A stretch of 64,000 nt of DNA from the NCBI GenBank assembly GCA_964291415.2, contig OZ219917.1, positions 64,001-128,000 on the forward strand. Reading direction: 5' to 3'. Position 1 is the first letter of the stretch. Each line of letters begins with the position of its first letter. Source of the DNA: Alphaproteobacteria bacterium (GTDB taxonomy: Bacteria; Pseudomonadota; Alphaproteobacteria; SP197). Below the pieces are notes generated by a model. It was not told the origin of the DNA and did no database searches. It saw only the letters and a program-made list of their open reading frames with translations. The translations under genes were made by a program, and so were the position numbers. Of this stretch, positions 50,317 through 60,862 are shown in pieces.

Positions 50317-50650
50317 GGTCTTGTCCTCCGGGATCATGGCCGACGGGCCGGGACTCTACCCGGCGGGCCGGCCGGGCGTCCAAGGCGACGACCTTTGCGA
50401 CGAGGAGGACGATCAGGGCCGGAACGCCTCGCAAGGTGACACTGGCGGCGTCGGTGCCTCGGCACGCAGGAAAGCGCCTTCACCACAGCACGCACCTTTG
50501 TTTCTAATCTACTGTAATACCTACCCGTTTTCTCTCGACCATTGTTGCGAACGAACGGAATGCGACACTCCCGATCGCGGTAGGGAACCGGGTTGCCCCG
50601 GTCCCCCCCGCGCAGATCCGGACGAGCGCTGTTCGCATCCGGCTCCTCCC

Positions 50651-51488
50651 TCAGGTCCTGACGACGAGCCGTTGGTTTGGCCACGGGTGGCGGATGCTGG
50701 CTTTGGGCCAGTGGGCGGCGGTGAGGAGGTCAATATCCGTCCATTCGGTGCGATCCTTCTGAGATCGTCGCCGAAGCGCACACCTGAACAGCCTGCGGCA
50801 TTGGCGTATGAACCTCTGCAAGTCATGGCCGCTCCCGGGGACGGCAAAGTAGTTGAGCCAGCCATTGATAACTCGCCCAAGCCACTTGGCCGTTTCGTGC
50901 CGGTTGTCGTGCCACCGCATGCTCAGTGCCTCCTTGATCCGCCGCAGAGTGCGGCGGACCCGTTTCCGGGACGGTTTGCGGCCAACCCTGAACCGGCCAT
51001 TCCTCGTCTGCTCGCAGAAGTGCGTCATGCCGAGAAAGTCAAACGTCTCCGGCTTGCCCTGCCCCCGCTTGCGGCGGTTCGCTCTCGCAAACCGACCGAA
51101 CTCGATGAGCCGGGTCTTGTCCGGATGCAGTTCCAGTCCATAGCGGGCCAGCCTCTCCCCGAGGTCCCGGAGGAAGCGCTTCGCATCGCCCAGATGCTGG
51201 AAGCCGCACACAAAATCATCGGCATAACGCACGATGATGGTGTCGCCTCCAGCCATCCGCTTGCGCCATGTGTTGTGGAACCAGTCGTCGAGCACGTAGT
51301 GCAGATAAACGTTCGCAAGGCAGGCCGATACAATCGCCCCCTGCGGCGTTCCCCTGCCGGTGTCCGACCAGTCGGCCCCCTCCATGACGCCGGCGTTGAG
51401 CCACTTGACGATCAGCCTGATGACCCGCTTGTCCCCGATACGTTTCTCGAGCATCCGAACCAGATGGTCCCGGCCGAGATTGTCGAAG
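50651..51488 (-). CDS. ltrA: Group II intron RT/maturase, C-terminal part (RT3-7, X)
   Basis: FDNLGRDHL..., GTPQGA.VS..LANVYLHY.LD, RYADDF, LHPDKTR, FDFLG; no endonuclease domain. Confidence 0.92.
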
Positions 51489-51813
51489 GACCACCCGACA
51501 CACTACCCACCTCCGTGAGCTTCCGGTCTCGGTCAGGATTACGCGCGAGGCGCATCCCTATCAGGGCCAGTCGCTTGAAGTCCTGAAGCAGATTCGCCGG
51601 CAGGACGGCGTCCTGCTTCTTCTCCTTCTTGGTCCTGACGGCAGCCGCCGTCTTGTTCCCGTCGAGTGGACGGATGCCGTGCCCGGCGATGCCACCGGAC
51701 AACCGGGGACCGGTCATCAACTCACAGCCGGACCGCACGATCTGTTGCACTTGCGATCTCTCGTCGATGCTCTGCTCGCTCGTTCTGAAGCGGAGCCCTG
51801 TCGATGCAACTGA
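51481..51813 (+). CDS. DUF5372-like small accessory protein (no canonical start inside the element)
   Basis: Manual translation: ...VRITREAHPYQGQSLEVLKQIRRQDGVLLLLLLGPDGSRRLVPVEWTD...LLHLRSLVDALL; family assigned from memory. Confidence 0.6.
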   Translation, partial: CRRTTRHTTHLRELPVSVRITREAHPYQGQSLEVLKQIRRQDGVLLLLLLGPDGSRRLVPVEWTDAVPGDATGQPGTGHQLTAGPHDLLHLRSLVDALLARSEAEPCRCN

Positions 51814-51963
51814 ACCTGATCTTTCCGGGAACCCGGGAACCGCACGAGGAGCTGTGGACAGCCCTCGACGAGGAGACACGCCGCGTCGTGCTCGGAACGG
51901 CTGGCCGAGGTCATCGCCAAGGCGGCACCGGAGAAGCCCCAGGCGGAGAGCATCGGACCATGA
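51804..51963 (+). CDS. Small helical accessory protein upstream of the recombinase (1-nt insertion near 51893)
   Basis: MQLNLIFP...LWTALDEETRRVVL/ERLAEVIAKAA...GP*; corrected stop overlaps the recombinase ATG (ATGA). Confidence 0.55.
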
Positions 51964-54172
51964 CTGATGGCAAGATCTGTGCTGCACATCGGCAACGCCG
52001 TGCCCTCGTGTACGTCCGCCACGTCCTCGCCGTCCCAGGTCGAGAACAACCGCGAGTCGACCCGGCGCCAGTACGCCCTGGCCGATCGCGCCCGTGATCT
52101 GGGGTGGCACTCCGACCGGATCACGATCGTCGACGAGGACCTCGGCCTCTCGGGCGCCACTGCCGAAGGACGCAGCGGCTTCGCGCGCATGACCGCCGAA
52201 GTGGCCCTCGGCCAGGTCGGGCTCCTGCTCGGGCTCGAGGTGTCGAGACTCGCCCGCAACAACGCCGACTGGTACAGACTGCTTGACCTGTGCGGATTGA
52301 CCGACACCCTGATCGGCGACGCCGACGGCATCTATCATCCCGGCCTGTTCAACGACAGACTCGTCCTGGGACTGAAGGGCACCATGAGCGAGGCGGAGCT
52401 TCATATCCTGCGAGCACGGCTCGATGGCGGAATCCGCAACAAGGCGGCGCGCGGTGAGCTCTACCGAGGACAGCCCATCGGATACATCCGGGGCGAGGCC
52501 GGCGCCGAGATCCTTCTCGACCCCAATGAGGAGGTTCAGGCCGCGATCCGCGCCGTGTTCGAACGATTCGCCGAGTTCGGATCGGCACGCCGGGTGTGGC
52601 GCTGGTTCGTGATGGAGAAGCTGCACTTTCCCCACCGCTTCCACCGCCATGCCGAGCTTCGCTGGGAACCGCCCGCCTATCACACCATCCATGAAGTGCT
52701 GACCAATCCGGTCTATGCCGGCGCCTACGCTTACGGCAAGTCGCGGCGTGAGCGCCATGTCGACGAGAACGGCATCGTGCGCACGCGCATCCGCAGGCTG
52801 CCCCGCTCCGAATGGCAGGTACTGATCCACGACCATCATCCCGCCTATATCGACTGGTCCACCCACGAAGCCATTCTCGAGCGCCTGTCGCGCAACACCC
52901 GGCCGCTGTCGCATGGCGCGGGCAAGGGAGCGGTGCGTGAGGGAACGGCCTTGCTGCAGGGTCTCGGCATCTGTGGCGAGTGCGGGCGCCGCCTGGCGAC
53001 CCACTACACCGGCCGGACCTCCTCGCCCGGATATCATTGCAGGGGCAAGGAGCTGGTCGAGGCGCGGCGCTCCCTGTGCTTGCATGTGGGGGCCGTGCAG
53101 ATCGACCAGGCGGTCGCCAAGGCCGTCCTGGAGGCGATCCGACCGGCCGGCATCAAGGCCGCCTTGCAGGCGGTCGAGCGCATCGAGGCGGACTACGATC
53201 AGGCGCTCAAGCAATGGGGGCTCACCGTCGAGCGAGCACGTTACGAGGCCGAGAAGGCCGAGCGCCGGTATCGCGCTGTCGAGCCCGAACATCGTCTCGT
53301 CGCCCGCGGGCTGGAACGGGAATGGGAGCAGTGTCTGAACGCACTCGAAGAAGCGCAGAATGAGATGGAGCGGCGTCATCGCGACCGGCCGCGCCAACTC
53401 GATGCCGCCGAGCGCGATTCGCTCCTGGCCCTCGGCGAGGATCTCCAGCGCGCCTGGGATGCGCCCACGACGACGGCTCGCGACAGGAAGGAGCTGCTGC
53501 GCACGGTGCTCGATGAGGTCATCGTTCTTGCCCCGCGCGGCGAGTATCATATCCACCTGACACTGCGCTGGCGGACCGGGTTGTTGACCGAGATCGAACT
53601 CGAGCGCCCGCGCAAACGACGGGCGGCGGTCCGCACCGACGACGACATCATCGATCTGGTCCGCCGCCTCGCTCAGTTCCATTCCGATGCGGTGATCGCC
53701 GCCATACTCAATCGCCAGGGCAAGACAACCGCCTACGGGCATCCCTTCAATGTCCATCGCGTCGGCAATCTCCGCCGGCACTGGAGCATTCCGTGCTTCG
53801 ATCCAGCGACCGCGGCCACCGATGGCGAGCTGGTCAACATCGCCCAGGCGGCGAAGATACGTCGGCATCGCAACCTCGACGGTGCATCGATGGCTCAATG
53901 ACGGCTTCATCGACGGTGAGCAAGTCACGCCGGGAGCCCCGTGGCGCATCCGCATCACGGACGCGTTCCGTCCCAGGCTCATGGAAGAGGCGCCGCCCGG
54001 CTACGTCCCGATGATCGAGGCCATGCAGCGTCTCGGTGTGACCCGTCAGACCGTGTTGCAACGTGTAAAGCGTGGCGAACTCGACGCCATCCATGTCCGC
54101 GCCGGAAGAAAAAAGGCTCTACGTATCAGGGTTGTAGACGATAAGCCGGACCTCTTCGGTCACTCCGCATAA
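51960..54172 (+). CDS. Large serine recombinase (resolvase + recombinase + Zn-ribbon + C-terminal HTH), with two +1 frameshifts (about 52022 and 53861)
   Basis: MTDGKI...VYVR(Q)SS.SQV, DEDLG.SG, EVSRLARN, LGLKGTMSEAEL, NPVYAGAY.YG, CGECG. Confidence 0.9.
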
Positions 54173-54193
54173 GCTGGGGGACACGTATGACAA

Positions 54194-54842
54194 TGTCGAA
54201 GAATCCGCTGATATCCGCGTCCAGCACCCAGTTGACCTTGCGCCGCTCAATCCCGACCGTGACCGCGTCGAGCGCATCGTGCGCCCCGCGCCCCGGGCGG
54301 AACCCATAGCTGAAGCCGAGGAACTCCGTCTCGAAGATCGGCACCAGGATCGTGTCTGTCACCGCGCGCTGGACGATCTTGTCCTCCAGCGCGGCGATGC
54401 CGAGCGGTCGTTGCCCACCGTCCTCTTTGGGAATGTAGACCCGCCGTGACGGCAGCGCCCGGTACGCTCCCCTATGCAGGCGGCCCTGCAGGTCGCTCAG
54501 GCGACCGTCCAGACCGTCCGCGTAGTGGGCCCACGTCACGCCGTCGACCCCGGCCGCCGCGTCCTTCCTCAACGAGTGGAACGCGTCGCTCAGGGCCTCT
54601 GTCGTGATGTGGTGGAGGAGCGCAACAAGACGCTCTCCCGGGTTCCTCTTGGCTGCTGCCCGTATCCGGTCCGCCGCCTGTGGCACGCTTTCCCGCTTCT
54701 GGGCACGGCGCGTGGCGCGACTTTCCGGCTTCCCCTCAGGTCCGGCCCTTCGCTCCACGAGCTCCGCCGGCGCCAAGGCGCCTTTGTTCGCTCGCTTCAT
54801 CGCTACTATGGCCGAATCCGACTTCTCCAAATCGTTCGTCAT
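54194..54842 (-). CDS. ltrA: Group II intron RT/maturase, N-terminal part (RT0-3)
   Basis: LLHHIT, AAAGVDG, YIPK.DG..RPLGI..LEDKIVQ, SYGFRPGR..HDA, LDADISGFFD then the insertion. Confidence 0.92.
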
Positions 54843-55191
54843 CAGTTACGGACTTCTCCTTTCATCAGCGGCCCCGTACGACACGGGGCGACTTGGAGAC
54901 CTCCCGGGTCCCGGCAGAAGGCGTGCATACGTGCCTGGGTTCTCAGACGCCGCGGAGCCGGCTCGACCCTCGTCCTGTCGGTCCGAGCCGTGTTGCCTTC
55001 GACCCCTAGGACGGTCTCGGCACTCCGAACTTGGGATTTCGGCGCTCAATAGCCCCGCCCGCATACCCCGCTACCGACGCTTCACCGACAGCCTCACGAC
55101 TGCCCGCGCACGGCTCGCGGAGAAGGTTGGCTGACTAGGCCTTACCTCCAGCGGACTTTCACCGCCTCCCTTCTGCCAGTTGGCCCGGCAC

Positions 55192-55493
55192 TCCCCAGGT
55201 CCCGGTGGACTGCTTCGGCGCGTGCCATGGTTCTTTGACCCCGCGGAGCCCCTCGTCACCTCACCAAAACGACTCAACGGGTGTTGCCTTCGGCTCACGG
55301 GACGGCCTCGGCACTCCAGATCACTAGCTTTTCGGGTCTCGATAGCCCGGCCCACGCTTGCCCCCCCAACGCTTCGCCTGCCGCCTCGCGACGACCGACG
55401 CATGGTTTGCGGGGAAAGTGGTTGGTTGAGCTCTGTTTCTGCTTCTGCCAGGACATTCACCCGGCAACATTCCCACCAGTTTGCCTGGCGCAC
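55192..55493 (-). mobile_element. Orphan group II intron domain I (intron B remnant) directly 5' of intron A
   Basis: Starts GTGCGCC at 55493; ccagg/ctggtggg pairs with ccaccgg/cctgg; shares gagtgccgag..cgaaggcaacac and gaagcg motifs with intron A domain I. Confidence 0.78.
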
Positions 55494-58340: not shown

Positions 58341-60509
58341 TCACGCCGGCAACCGTGCCGGTGCTTCGGGCGACCAGCAGCGCTGTTCCCGCAGCAGGGC
58401 GTTCGCCAGCACGATGAGTTTGCGCATGAGGGCGACGATCGCCACCTTGTGGGCCTTGCCGGCGGCCTTGAGGCGTTCGAACACGCTTGCGAGATCCTGG
58501 TTGCAGCGTGATGCCGTGGTGGCGGCCATGAACAGGAGATCGCGTGGCCTGCGGCGCCCGCCGCGAATGTGCCGGGTGCCGTGGTGCTGGCCGCTGTCGT
58601 CGGCAACCGGCGCCACTCCGATCAACGCCGCCGCCTGGCGACCCTCGAGACTGCCGAGTTCGGGCATCCAGCAAAGAAGGGCGGCGGCGGTCACCGGACC
58701 GACGCCGGGGATCGAGATCAGGATGCCGTACTTCTCGGCCTGCTCGGGATCACCGGCGATCACCGCTTCGATCGCCGCATCCAGTGCGGCAATCCTCTCG
58801 TCGAGATCGGCGACCGTGGCCCGTGTGAGGGTCTCGCCCTCGCCGTCCACCTCACCCGCCACCTGCCTCAGCATCTTGCGTGCATCGACATGCCTGGCGC
58901 GCACCACCAGGAGGTCCTCCAGGCGGTTGAGGAACGCCTCCTGGGGAGCCACGGGCTCAAGGTCGTCGAGCACCGTCCCGAGCCTGGCCAGCATCAACGC
59001 GTCGACGCGGTCGGTTTTGGCCAGATGGCCCAGCGCCTCGGCGAAGCGCCGGGTCGGCCATGGATGGCGGATACGCAGCTGCGGCCAGAACGCACGCGCC
59101 AGAGAACCAACGGTGGCCAAAGTGGCACGATCCATTTGGGACCGACGCCGCAGCACACGGCACCAGATCTTTAGAAGTCGCCGCACGAACCGCTTGAGGG
59201 ACAGGAAGCTGGTGGAGACGGCATAGTAGCCGAGCCAACCATCAACGACCCTTCCGAGCCATTTGGCCACTTCATACCGGTTGTGGTGCATGCGGTGGCG
59301 CAGAACCGTCCGGAGACGAGCCAGGGTTCGGGTGACCCGTTGCCTGGCCGGCTTGCGCCCCAACCCGAAGCCTCCGCTCCGCGTGGTTCGGCAGCAATGC
59401 GTGAACCCGAGGAAGTCGAAGGTTTCGGGACGCCGTTCCCCTCGTGCCCGACGGTTCGCCATGGCGAACTTTCCGAACTCGAGGAGACGGGTCTTGGCAG
59501 GGTGAAGTTCCAGCGAGAACCGAGCCAGTCGTTCCTTCAGATCGTCGAGGAACCGTTCCGCGTCCTGCCGATGCTGGAATCCGACCACGAAGTCATCGCC
59601 GTATCGCACGATGAACGTGACACCACGGGCTGTCTGGGTGCGCCACTTCTTCTGGAACCAGAGGTCGAGGGCGTAGTGGAGGTAGATGTTCGCCAGAATC
59701 GGCGAGACGACCGAACCCTGCGGAGTGCCCCGCAGGTTGTCCCTCCATTCACCCTCGTCCATGGCACCGGCATGGAGCCACTTGGCGATCAGCCGGATGA
59801 CCCGTCTGTCACCAATGCGGTGTTCCAGGAACCGGAGAAGACATCGTCGGTCAATTCGGTCAAAGTAGGACCGAATGTCCGCGTCAAGGATCCAGTTGAT
59901 GGAGCACCGTTCTATCCCGTAGGCCAGAGCATCGAGCGCGTCATGCGCCCCGCGCCCCGGTCGGAACCCATAGCTGAACCCGAGGAACTCCGGCTCCCAG
60001 ATTGGCTCAAGGATGGTCTCGACCACCGCCTTCTGGACGATCTTGTCCTCCAGCGCAGCGATGCCAAGCGGTCGTGTCCCCCCGTCCGGCTTCGGGATGT
60101 TCACCCGTCGGGACGGGAGCGCTCGGTACGCGCCGCTGTGAACACGGTCATGCAGGGCGAGCAGACGCTCGTTCAGTCCATGTCCGTATTCGTGCCACGT
60201 CACCCCGTCCACCCCTGCCGCCGCGTCCTTCTTCAACGAGAAGTAGGCAGCGCCGAGAGCGTCCGTCGTGATGTGGTGCAACAGCGCAGTGAGCCTCTCC
60301 TTCGGAGTCCTCGTGGCCCTTTGCCGTATCCGCTCCGCCGCCTGTGACATGCGAGCCCGGCCCTGTGTCCGGTGCATGCTTTGGTGTCGCGGATTCCTCT
60401 TGGTTTCGGCCCTTCGCTCCATCGCCTCCGCCAGAGCCTCGGTTCCCTTGTTCGGCGACTTCACAGCTACTATGCCCGAATCCGATTGCTTCAACTCGTC
60501 CATCTTCAT
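58341..60509 (-). CDS. In-frame fusion of group II intron RT/maturase and the IS110 recombinase C-terminal half (722 aa)
   Basis: RT motifs through RYGDDF and HPWP; from RRFA onward AKTDRVDA, SIPGVGP..AA, GVAP...DSG, IRGGR, GKAHKVAIVALMRKL. Confidence 0.88.
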   Translation of the reverse strand: MKMDELKQSDSGIVAVKSPNKGTEALAEAMERRAETKRNPRHQSMHRTQGRARMSQAAERIRQRATRTPKERLTALLHHITTDALGAAYFSLKKDAAAGVDGVTWHEYGHGLNERLLALHDRVHSGAYRALPSRRVNIPKPDGGTRPLGIAALEDKIVQKAVVETILEPIWEPEFLGFSYGFRPGRGAHDALDALAYGIERCSINWILDADIRSYFDRIDRRCLLRFLEHRIGDRRVIRLIAKWLHAGAMDEGEWRDNLRGTPQGSVVSPILANIYLHYALDLWFQKKWRTQTARGVTFIVRYGDDFVVGFQHRQDAERFLDDLKERLARFSLELHPAKTRLLEFGKFAMANRRARGERRPETFDFLGFTHCCRTTRSGGFGLGRKPARQRVTRTLARLRTVLRHRMHHNRYEVAKWLGRVVDGWLGYYAVSTSFLSLKRFVRRLLKIWCRVLRRRSQMDRATLATVGSLARAFWPQLRIRHPWPTRRFAEALGHLAKTDRVDALMLARLGTVLDDLEPVAPQEAFLNRLEDLLVVRARHVDARKMLRQVAGEVDGEGETLTRATVADLDERIAALDAAIEAVIAGDPEQAEKYGILISIPGVGPVTAAALLCWMPELGSLEGRQAAALIGVAPVADDSGQHHGTRHIRGGRRRPRDLLFMAATTASRCNQDLASVFERLKAAGKAHKVAIVALMRKLIVLANALLREQRCWSPEAPARLPA

Positions 60510-60862
60510 TTCGGATCGTTTCCTTCCTTCCGCGGCCCCGGTACGACAACCGGGGCAAGTTGAAGCCCTCCCGAGTCCCGGTGCAGGGGTGTACGTGCGT
60601 CCCTGGATTCCTCTGACACCGCAGAGCCCGGTCTGTCCTCACCAAAGCGGACATGCCGGTGTGGCCTTCGGCAGATATCAGTGCCTCGGCACTCTGGAAC
60701 TTAACCTTTACGGTGCTCAATCATCCCGGCCACACGCACCGCTACCGACGCTTCGGCCGTGCCCTCACAGGCGCGTCCGCACGGCTCGCGGTGGAAGTGG
60801 AGGTTACCCTTTCTTCCCGTCGGACTTTCACCGACTCCCCTGCGCCAGTTAGCTCGGCGCAC

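Follow-up and report, generated by a model that had tools for sequence, protein, structure and literature searches.

Why does a serine recombinase gene lie inside the reverse transcriptase (RT) gene of a group II intron, and is its position there a matter of chance? The question is raised by a stretch of 64,000 nt (hereafter, the window) from an Alphaproteobacteria genome (contig OZ219917.1, positions 64,001-128,000; the genome is coded G000, and the loci of homologs are coded L002 and so on). The RT gene of one of its group II introns, intron A, is interrupted by an element that carries a large serine recombinase (LSR) gene and two small open reading frames (ORFs), OrfA and OrfB. The insertion at this RT codon is beyond chance: the same codon is occupied by a second copy in the same genome and by dozens of relatives. 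Very probably, this is a minimal LSR element that uses the RT motif as its attB site, crosses over at a TT dinucleotide, restores the RT gene upon excision, and has its OrfA gene completed in the circular form. Sequence comparison indicates a serine-integrase integrative element reduced to the size of an insertion sequence (IS) and specific for a motif of group II intron RTs; as such, it appears to be a parasite of another selfish element.

Intron A (50574..55191, minus strand) has both the ribozyme domains and the maturase-bearing RT of a group II intron, with domains V/VI below threshold. Its D1-D4 region matches Rfam RF02005 at 54938-55159(-) with 172.5 bits, domains V/VI match RF00029 at 50574-50647(-) with 33.2 bits against a gathering score of 40 (E 9.8e-5), and the 5' end reads GTGCCG at 55191-55186(-). 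The RT N-terminal half (54201..54842, minus strand) ends with ..DADISGF and the TT of the following Phe codon; its ORF (54126-54842(-)) runs to ..VLDADISGFFD and then continues into the insert sequence. The C-terminal half (50651..51487, minus strand; ORF 50651-51454(-)) begins with F-D-N-L-G-R-D-H and includes the left crossover dinucleotide. In Pfam, the N-half matches positions 1-82 of the RVT_1 profile, and the C-half matches positions 100-204 and GIIM. An earlier note on this DNA, made by reading the sequence, had described the RT as split by a 2713-bp antisense insert with a serine recombinase, bounded by the 8-bp repeat tgtcgaag, within an intron whose ribozyme ends are present. The ORFs and Pfam matches bear out the split, the repeat was located at 51481-51488 and 54194-54201, and both ribozyme ends were recovered as given above. 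The clean ORF that the note expected after deletion of 51489-54201 was reproduced by a script: it encodes 492 aa in 1479 nt, including the stop codon.

The insert matches one other place in the genome, G000:C1:1158993-1161693 (L002), where the recombinase is a single uninterrupted ORF of 736 aa. This copy likewise lies antisense inside a group II intron, identified by RF02001 and RF01998 (D1-D4) and RF00029 (domain V), and the two host introns differ in Rfam class, RF02005 for the window copy versus RF02001/RF01998 for L002. The flanks of the L002 host RT read ..VVDLDLEKF | FDRVNHDILM... Among the 70 RT residues adjacent to the junction, 37% on the N side and 41% on the C side are identical to those of intron A. 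The four RVT_1 matches of the genome fall in three RT genes, those of intron A, of the L002 intron, and of the intron designated C, and an element occupies two of them. Since an intact enzyme is encoded at L002, the frameshift correction that had been considered necessary for a recombination assay is not required. The L002 intron RT itself looks decayed, though the inserted element is intact: its C-half (L002 4212-5699(+)) has YADS at the position where we would expect YADD, its frame stays open across domain V as far as the locus end, and it was not detected by RVT_1 in the genome search.

Relatives of the element were collected from several sources. One close relative (L004) came from a search of genome contigs, and two further ones (L019 and L020) came from 401 sampled genomes of the class, G000 among them. 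A metagenome scan revealed more than 597, of which the best 80, with LSRs 58-70% identical, were kept; five of these contigs end inside the element. L004, with an LSR 89% identical, has RT halves 83% and 71% identical to those of intron A and represents the same intron lineage; no ribozyme parts were found in its contig. In L019 (LSR 61% identical), the adjoining antisense RT N-half ends with ..DLDLRSY and is 37-39% identical to the RTs of G000. In L020 (genome G089, LSR 55% identical), the 610 bp upstream contain nothing besides OrfA and OrfB homologs, and the contig ends before the junction.

The flanks of the best 80 metagenome relatives were examined for the RT motif. A right flank of at least 18 nt was required to have D-(LIVMA)-x-x-(FYC) at the end of its frame, and a left flank of at least 19 nt was required to have a frame starting with (F/L)-(D/G/N/T)-x-(LIVMA). 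The motif is present in 48 of 49 scorable right flanks and in 66 of 69 scorable left flanks, while random translated stretches of these loci pass in 10/16000 (N side) and 83/16000 (C side) cases. The flanks of the homologs are thus enriched for RT genes split at the same codon, as the earlier note had proposed to check, and the trait of multi-targeting LSRs, insertion into many unrelated target genes, is not observed. Ninety peptides of at least 50 aa from 128 flanks were compared with Pfam. On the N side, RVT_1 was found in 35 of 42 peptides, all ending at profile positions 75-78 at the junction. On the C side, it was found in 45 of 48, with the match starting at position 79 and residue 1 in 43 of them (at 80 in L079 and at 100 in L069), and many of these peptides additionally match GIIM. 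The break falls between RVT_1 profile positions 78 and 79. Ribozyme parts are found antisense to the LSR gene in 11 of the 20 longest loci (RF02005 in eight and RF02003 in three), and the occupied RT genes span at least three Rfam ribozyme classes. No group II match was found by Rfam in the first 14 homolog loci, which comprise L004 and sister clades with LSRs 33-46% identical. Elements with LSRs 58-90% identical are found antisense at RVT_1 78|79 and not at diverse unrelated sites. This recurrence at one codon in unrelated introns strongly supports the proposal that the conserved RT motif serves as attB.

The same recurrence might be expected if one ancient insertion had been spread by intron retrohoming, so that the RT location would reflect co-inheritance and not targeting. 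The window copy and L004 fit this explanation, as they are related both in their elements (LSR 89% identical) and in their host introns (83% and 71% for the RT halves), and co-inheritance evidently occurs too. There are 14 locus pairs at least 95% identical over the first 900 nt of the recombinase gene, 11 of them with comparable RT flanks. Two of the 11 pairs occupy the same RT, which agrees with co-inheritance, whereas the RTs of the other nine are merely 33-55% identical, and simple co-inheritance with one intron lineage is thereby ruled out. The two copies in G000 also occupy introns of different Rfam classes, and the junctions, with a common dinucleotide between conserved arms, are typical of a site-specific recombination site. 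Taken together, these data make spread by retrohoming alone improbable as the source of the RT location, and targeting of the motif by the recombinase is preferred.

The junctions can be read most easily in L002. In the intron sense, the target ends with ..GAGAAGTTC on one side, followed by TT and the element end GGAAGC..; on the other side, the element end ..GGTGGTCC is followed by TT and the target sequence CGACC... L004, L019, and nearly every metagenome locus have the same layout. On the recombinase strand, the dinucleotide of the left junction is AA in 74 of 75 loci (TA in the remaining one), and that of the right junction is AA in all 57. In the window, they are located at 51486..51487 and 54199..54200, respectively, and read AA on the plus strand and TT in the intron sense. 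The att core would then be the 2-bp TT of the second Phe codon. The 8-bp tgtcgaag, given in the note as the bounds of the insert, is not the core; other copies have just the dinucleotide in common at both ends. Its left copy (51481..51488) consists of the target bases GTCG, AA, and the first G of the element, while the right copy (54194..54201) is a product of an aberrant right arm and is absent in L002 and the other loci. The right arm of the window copy (54169..54198, plus strand) has 9 nt between GTATG and AA, versus 11 in the canonical arm, and ends with TCG, where the canonical arm has TCC; the 8-bp repeat exists because of these two deviations. The TCG|AA ending is shared with L033, but the arm spacing is normal there.

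The element body occupies 51488..54198 (plus strand), to which a single dinucleotide is added to give the 2713-bp insert. Where both ends are present (53 loci), the element measures 2669-2933 bp. The left arm (51488..51517, plus strand; GGAC..GACACACTACCCACC), a putative recombinase half-site, is conserved in 72 loci. On the LSR strand, its pattern is AA, GGAA, five variable bases, and GACACACTACCCA, and that of the right arm is GGGGGCAGTATGA, about seven variable bases, ATCC, and AA. The arms are imperfect inverted repeats located 11 and 10 nt from the dinucleotide, and they resemble serine-integrase attP sites, in which, by comparison, imperfect inverted repeats likewise flank a central 2-bp crossover. 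An exact 8-bp direct repeat around an insert could also be read as the target-site duplication of a DDE-type transposon. The repeat in the window speaks for this reading, but it stems from a right arm 2 nt shorter and ending with TCG. Moreover, the insert codes only for the serine recombinase and two small ORFs and for no DDE transposase, no 8-bp duplication is present in the 53 loci with both junctions read, and L002 and other loci share only the dinucleotide at their two ends. We regard a DDE-type origin as having a negligible probability.

The conservation of the target half-sites has a three-base periodicity that tracks the codons of V-D-A-D-I-x-G-F and F-D-x-I-x-H. The attB DNA is conserved because the encoded protein motif is conserved, and it is thus this DNA that the enzyme would read. 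Site matrices were built from the flanks of the loci of other genomes and applied to the window, where the third RT gene, that of intron C (58341-60509(-)), is uninterrupted at ..RSY|FDRIDR.. and encodes a protein 61.7% identical to the intron A RT over 486 aa. Its attB-like site (59839..59888, minus strand; central AA at 59863-59864) outscores all the others of the 3479 AA sites in the window, with a total of 24.9, to which the N-side half contributes 20.9 (median 21.9) and the C-side half 4.0 (median 17.2, 5th percentile -0.3). By this measure, intron C appears to be a plausible but weaker site. It had been described as different and empty; it is indeed empty, but it is not clearly incompatible, weak as the C-side half is. 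The ribozyme of intron C matches RF02005 at 60607-60828(-), and the whole extends over 58341-60828(-). In its 722-aa ORF, the RT/maturase frame continues into the C-terminal part of an IS110-type transposase (DEDD_Tnp_IS110 from profile position 77, Transposase_20), so intron C sits in an IS110-type transposase gene.

The recombinase gene of the window (51960..54172, plus strand) is split by extra bases at 52022 and 53861 and is broken into ORFs of 644 aa and 140 aa. According to Pfam, the enzyme contains the Resolvase, Recombinase, and Zn_ribbon_recom domains and two C-terminal HTH_17/excisionase-type motifs. In the intact 736-aa protein, Resolvase covers residues 16-166 with 61.4 bits, Recombinase (PF07508) scores 65.7 bits, and the zinc ribbon (PF13408) scores 27.6 bits against a cut-off of 25.3. 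The Arg-x-Ser motif is YVRQSS at residues 18-23, and its Ser is presumably the nucleophile. Based on this domain make-up and on the logic of the att sites, the enzyme is classified as a large serine recombinase, with predicted catalytic activity. Several narrower assignments were considered and rejected. The IS607 family profile NF033518 gives 24.2 bits against a cut-off of 110 and covers the C-terminal HTH only. The best NCBIfam match is the XisF-type NF041201, and its 76.9 bits against a cut-off of 375 place the LSR outside the XisF family. DUF4368, the mark of a multi-targeting clade, is absent among the 24 Pfam families found at E up to 1. A cluster look-up of two LSRs returned members without names.

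OrfA (51487..51965, plus strand) is a DUF5372-like gene with no start codon at this end of the element; in the window, its frame is lost after the extra bases at 51803, 51894, and 51955. The intact protein (P0001) matches DUF5372 with 24.1 bits against a cut-off of 25 (E 3.7e-5, profile positions 2-76 of 78), and no NCBIfam family was found for it. OrfB, of about 53 aa (MQLNLIFPG..; 51804..51967, plus strand), ends at the LSR start and is broken here by the extra bases at 51894 and 51955; all 18 loci inspected conserve it, in the +1 frame, and neither Pfam nor NCBIfam gave a family match. In L002 (3726-4203(-)) and 18 other loci, the OrfA and OrfB frames overlap and stop near the ATG of the LSR gene (..CCATGACTGA..), and this overlap suggests translational coupling or a frameshift product. 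The AF2 model of OrfA, constructed from a 47-row alignment, has a mean pLDDT of 73.6 and includes a confident small beta-barrel (residues 15-62) and a helix (83-102). A Foldseek search against PDB gave nothing at E <= 0.001, the best match being a Tudor domain (E 0.017), and in a wide VIA search the best Z was 6.1 (NdhS, KOW, Tudor, and SH3-like barrels). The modelled fold appears to be a generic small beta-barrel, which supports no functional inference.

The missing start of OrfA is found when the ends of the element are joined. In 51 of 52 two-ended loci, the joined ends give a frame of 127-239 aa (median 165) that runs across the dinucleotide into OrfA; the exception is L046, the arm of which is 1 nt short. 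The start codon is ATG in 49 cases, GTG in two, and TTG in one, and it is located 4 nt after GGGGG. In the integrated state, the first in-frame start of OrfA in L002 and L004 is codon 64, beyond the conserved core. Judging from these frames, OrfA would depend strongly on the circle in the copy of this genome, but only in part in the family. A scan of the intact element for sigma-70-like promoters found none, with 0.3 expected.

The following course of events, well supported by the comparative evidence, would account for these observations. The recombinase would take about 40-50 bp encoding the RT motif ..D-(L/A)-D-(L/I)-x-x-(F/Y)|F-D-x-(I/V/L)-x-H of group II intron RTs, which we take to be RT3, as its attB. 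Strand exchange would occur at the TT that opens the Phe codon of F-D; since TT is non-palindromic, the element is always antisense to the intron. Integration would split the RT at RVT_1 78|79 and disable it, leaving the ribozyme intact, while excision, again at this dinucleotide, would bring back the exact RT frame and free a circle. In the putative circle, the two arms together would form an attP-like imperfect palindrome, and OrfA, at the left end, would receive its ATG and a Shine-Dalgarno-like GGGGG from the right arm. The free form would favour full-length OrfA and, perhaps, expression of the coupled OrfB and LSR genes. The element could also ride in introns, and the maturase might be switched by excision.

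Several observations weigh against this interpretation. The related loci of the survey are not independent samples. RVT_1 was missed in 7 of 42 N-side peptides (L048, L065, L074, L087, L093, L102, and L104) and in 3 of 48 C-side peptides (L062, L075, and L096), some of them short or divergent; the left flank of L075, which also misses the motif pattern, was nevertheless recognised as RT by tblastn. The right flank of L038 and the left flanks of L063 and L096 are not RT. The left flank of L095 has just 10 nt and does not read as the motif, the RT of L104 spans only 6 aa, and that of L062 lasts about 25 aa, after which a LuxR-type gene follows. The non-RT flanks may represent off-target insertions, rearrangements, or chimeric contigs. 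In L053, L057, and L091, the N and C flanks belong to different RT types, which may be due to recombination between copies or to chimeric assembly across the 2.7-kb repeat. The window copy itself departs from the canonical right arm. The family as a whole does not strictly depend on the circle for OrfA, since codon 15 is an in-frame GTG in 25 of 52 loci and could start a protein only a little shorter in the integrated state. Finally, neither the joint 51488>54202 nor the back-joint was found in the contigs of four public runs, though contigs drop rare variants, and an attP-like junction (the right-arm motif and, within 15-35 nt after it, the left-arm motif) was found in 0 of 114 loci and not in the window.

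Exact restoration of the frame after removal at the dinucleotide would also be expected of a domesticated switch, that is, an insert retained by the host or by the intron for timed excision that activates the maturase/RT, and XisF as the best NCBIfam match of the LSR points in the same direction. That match, however, remains at 76.9 bits against 375. With its multiple copies across numerous unrelated introns and communities, the element behaves as a selfish mobile element does, and the RT C-half at L002 has YADS and no stop and was not detected by RVT_1. A domesticated switch is thus a poor candidate, and a selfish element that targets the RT motif remains the preferred interpretation.

The condition of the window copy requires a separate discussion. 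Compared with L002, it has five 1-base insertions (51803, 51894, 51955, 52022, and 53861), an A/G difference at 54181, an inserted base at 54184, and a 2-nt gap and a C>G substitution in the right arm. The contigs of four public runs (X14, X1, X2, and X3) were compared over 51000-54700. The sole X14 contig lacks all five extra bases (X14 holds 0.79 of the sampled words), as do the X1 and X2 contigs, with the omitted base in X1 at 51953 and not at 51955; X3 lacks the four extra bases that it covers and has no cover at 53861. The X14, X1, and X2 contigs cease matching at 54180, and the X14 contig extends 24 letters beyond this point, which would be the distance to the divergence of the flanks if both copies had the canonical arm. 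The five extra bases may therefore be assembly errors, and indels confined to the repeat would suit errors of an unpolished consensus; alternatively, the run contigs could originate from the identical second copy. If the frameshifts in OrfA, OrfB, and the LSR gene and the right arm shortened by 2 nt are real, the window copy is a dead relic and nothing is active here. The run contigs without the extra bases and the spectrum of differences speak against this, with the reservation that the second copy could have supplied the contigs; we consider a relic a real possibility, though not the favoured one. The window copy is either slightly decayed or mis-assembled, and the L002 copy is intact.

Comparison with known systems clarifies the place of the element. 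It shares with the phiC31, Bxb1, and A118-type serine integrases of phages and integrative elements the Resolvase-Recombinase-zinc ribbon architecture, precise and conservative insertion, and short att sites with imperfect inverted repeats and a non-palindromic central dinucleotide that fixes the orientation. In contrast to them, it is 2.7 kb in length with three genes and no phage or cargo, its target is a conserved motif of a gene of another mobile element across divergent introns, its LSR has an additional C-terminal tandem of HTH_17, and its DUF5372 gene is completed across the joined ends. Tn4451/Tn4453 (TnpX), Tn5397 (TndX), and the multi-targeting clade of Durrant et al. (2022) are similar in being non-phage LSR elements with a presumed circle and numerous copies in a genome or community. 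Tn4451/Tn4453 and Tn5397 have resistance cargo and a loose target choice, and the circle junction of Tn4451 forms a promoter. DUF4368 is present in 63% of the members of the multi-targeting clade (PMC10083194). Unlike TnpX/TndX and this clade, the element described here is specific for one motif and has no DUF4368.

In the circles of IS911, IS30, and IS2, the joining of the ends makes an expression signal and couples expression to the excised state. The joined ends of our element would likewise yield a signal for its own genes; it is not a -35/-10 promoter, as in these circles, but a ribosome-binding site and a start codon supplied to a split accessory gene. A further comparison is with skin in sigK (SpoIVCA) and with the fdxN element (XisF). 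Each of these is, like our element, an LSR element lying within a coding sequence that exact excision restores, but they occur as single copies, have been domesticated by the host, and interrupt host genes; the target of our element is a selfish element, and it moves from lineage to lineage. Homing of one mobile element into another is exemplified by twintrons (nested group II introns) and IStrons (PMC4227781). There, too, a selfish element uses another one as a safe harbour, but by ribozyme/RT homing or IS transposition, while in our case a DNA recombinase would read protein-coding conservation. No report of an LSR element in group II intron RT genes and no paper mentioning DUF5372 turned up in literature searches limited to open sources (subscription journals were outside the coverage); RT is not mentioned as a target in PMC10083194 (main text, six supplements). 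The family is widespread and apparently undescribed.

Other LSRs, 33-46% identical (L003, L005-L017, and L021-L030), have no RT flanks. Three of them, L021, L022, and L029 (genomes G155 and G191; LSRs 39-41% identical), belong to elements of about 2.6 kb inserted antisense in IS110-family transposase genes; the L021 flank matches Pfam DEDD_Tnp_IS110 at positions 89-153. This sister clade differs in both the target gene and the ends, and the arm motifs of the RT clade are absent or poor there. Landing in genes of other mobile elements may thus predate the RT-specific clade. A broader proposal would be that these are obligate retroelement hyperparasites with two routes of spread. By the DNA route, the recombinase would integrate the element into any group II intron with an RT still encoding the motif; by the passenger route, intron RNA would carry the element within its domain IV, and the element would be copied along with an interrupted intron mobilised in trans by the RT of an intact one. 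The circle-only start of the DUF5372 gene would be a sensor of the free state that sets the direction of the reaction. We consider this extended scheme speculative and rather unlikely as a whole; if true, it would unite the RT clade and the IS110 sister clade in a broad class of recombinase elements that use the coding conservation of mobile elements as landing pads.

The element described here would be a DNA element specialised on a retroelement, with a landing site in a stretch coding for the RT catalytic core that the intron cannot change. Such parasitism between selfish elements might serve as a natural brake on group II introns. The family would also offer a natural set of LSRs with attB and attP legible from the sequence and tolerant of synonymous variation, which is of interest for recombinase engineering, and an accessory gene completed by the joining of ends would be a simple molecular way to discriminate between the "integrated" and "free" states. 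The family also accounts for a class of intron RT genes that look "broken", and of recombinases with generic annotations, in genomic and metagenomic data.

A few minor observations can be added. G000 encodes a third, distant LSR (L003, G000:C2:1270774-1273923), 38% identical over 652 aa; no RT was found within this locus, where the LSR match reaches the locus end and the downstream flank is unseen. One Planctomycetota metagenome-assembled genome contains six copies (L005-L010) of a 3.2-kb relative with an LSR 37% identical; short tandem repeats (CACACGGACTCC-like) form the flanks, in which no target gene could be recognised. The contigs of L050, L059, and L074 each have, by tblastn, another LSR fragment at a distance of 2-3 kb from the first, and these may be multiple or nested elements in one intron cluster. 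Within the window, an 856-aa open frame (51412-53982(-)) antisense to the recombinase gene has no matches and is probably a by-product of the high G+C content. A third RF02005 match (55229-55448(-), 107.3 bits) precedes the 5' end of intron A by only about 38 nt, with no RT or domain V of its own found; it may be the 5' fragment of another intron or a remnant invaded by intron A.

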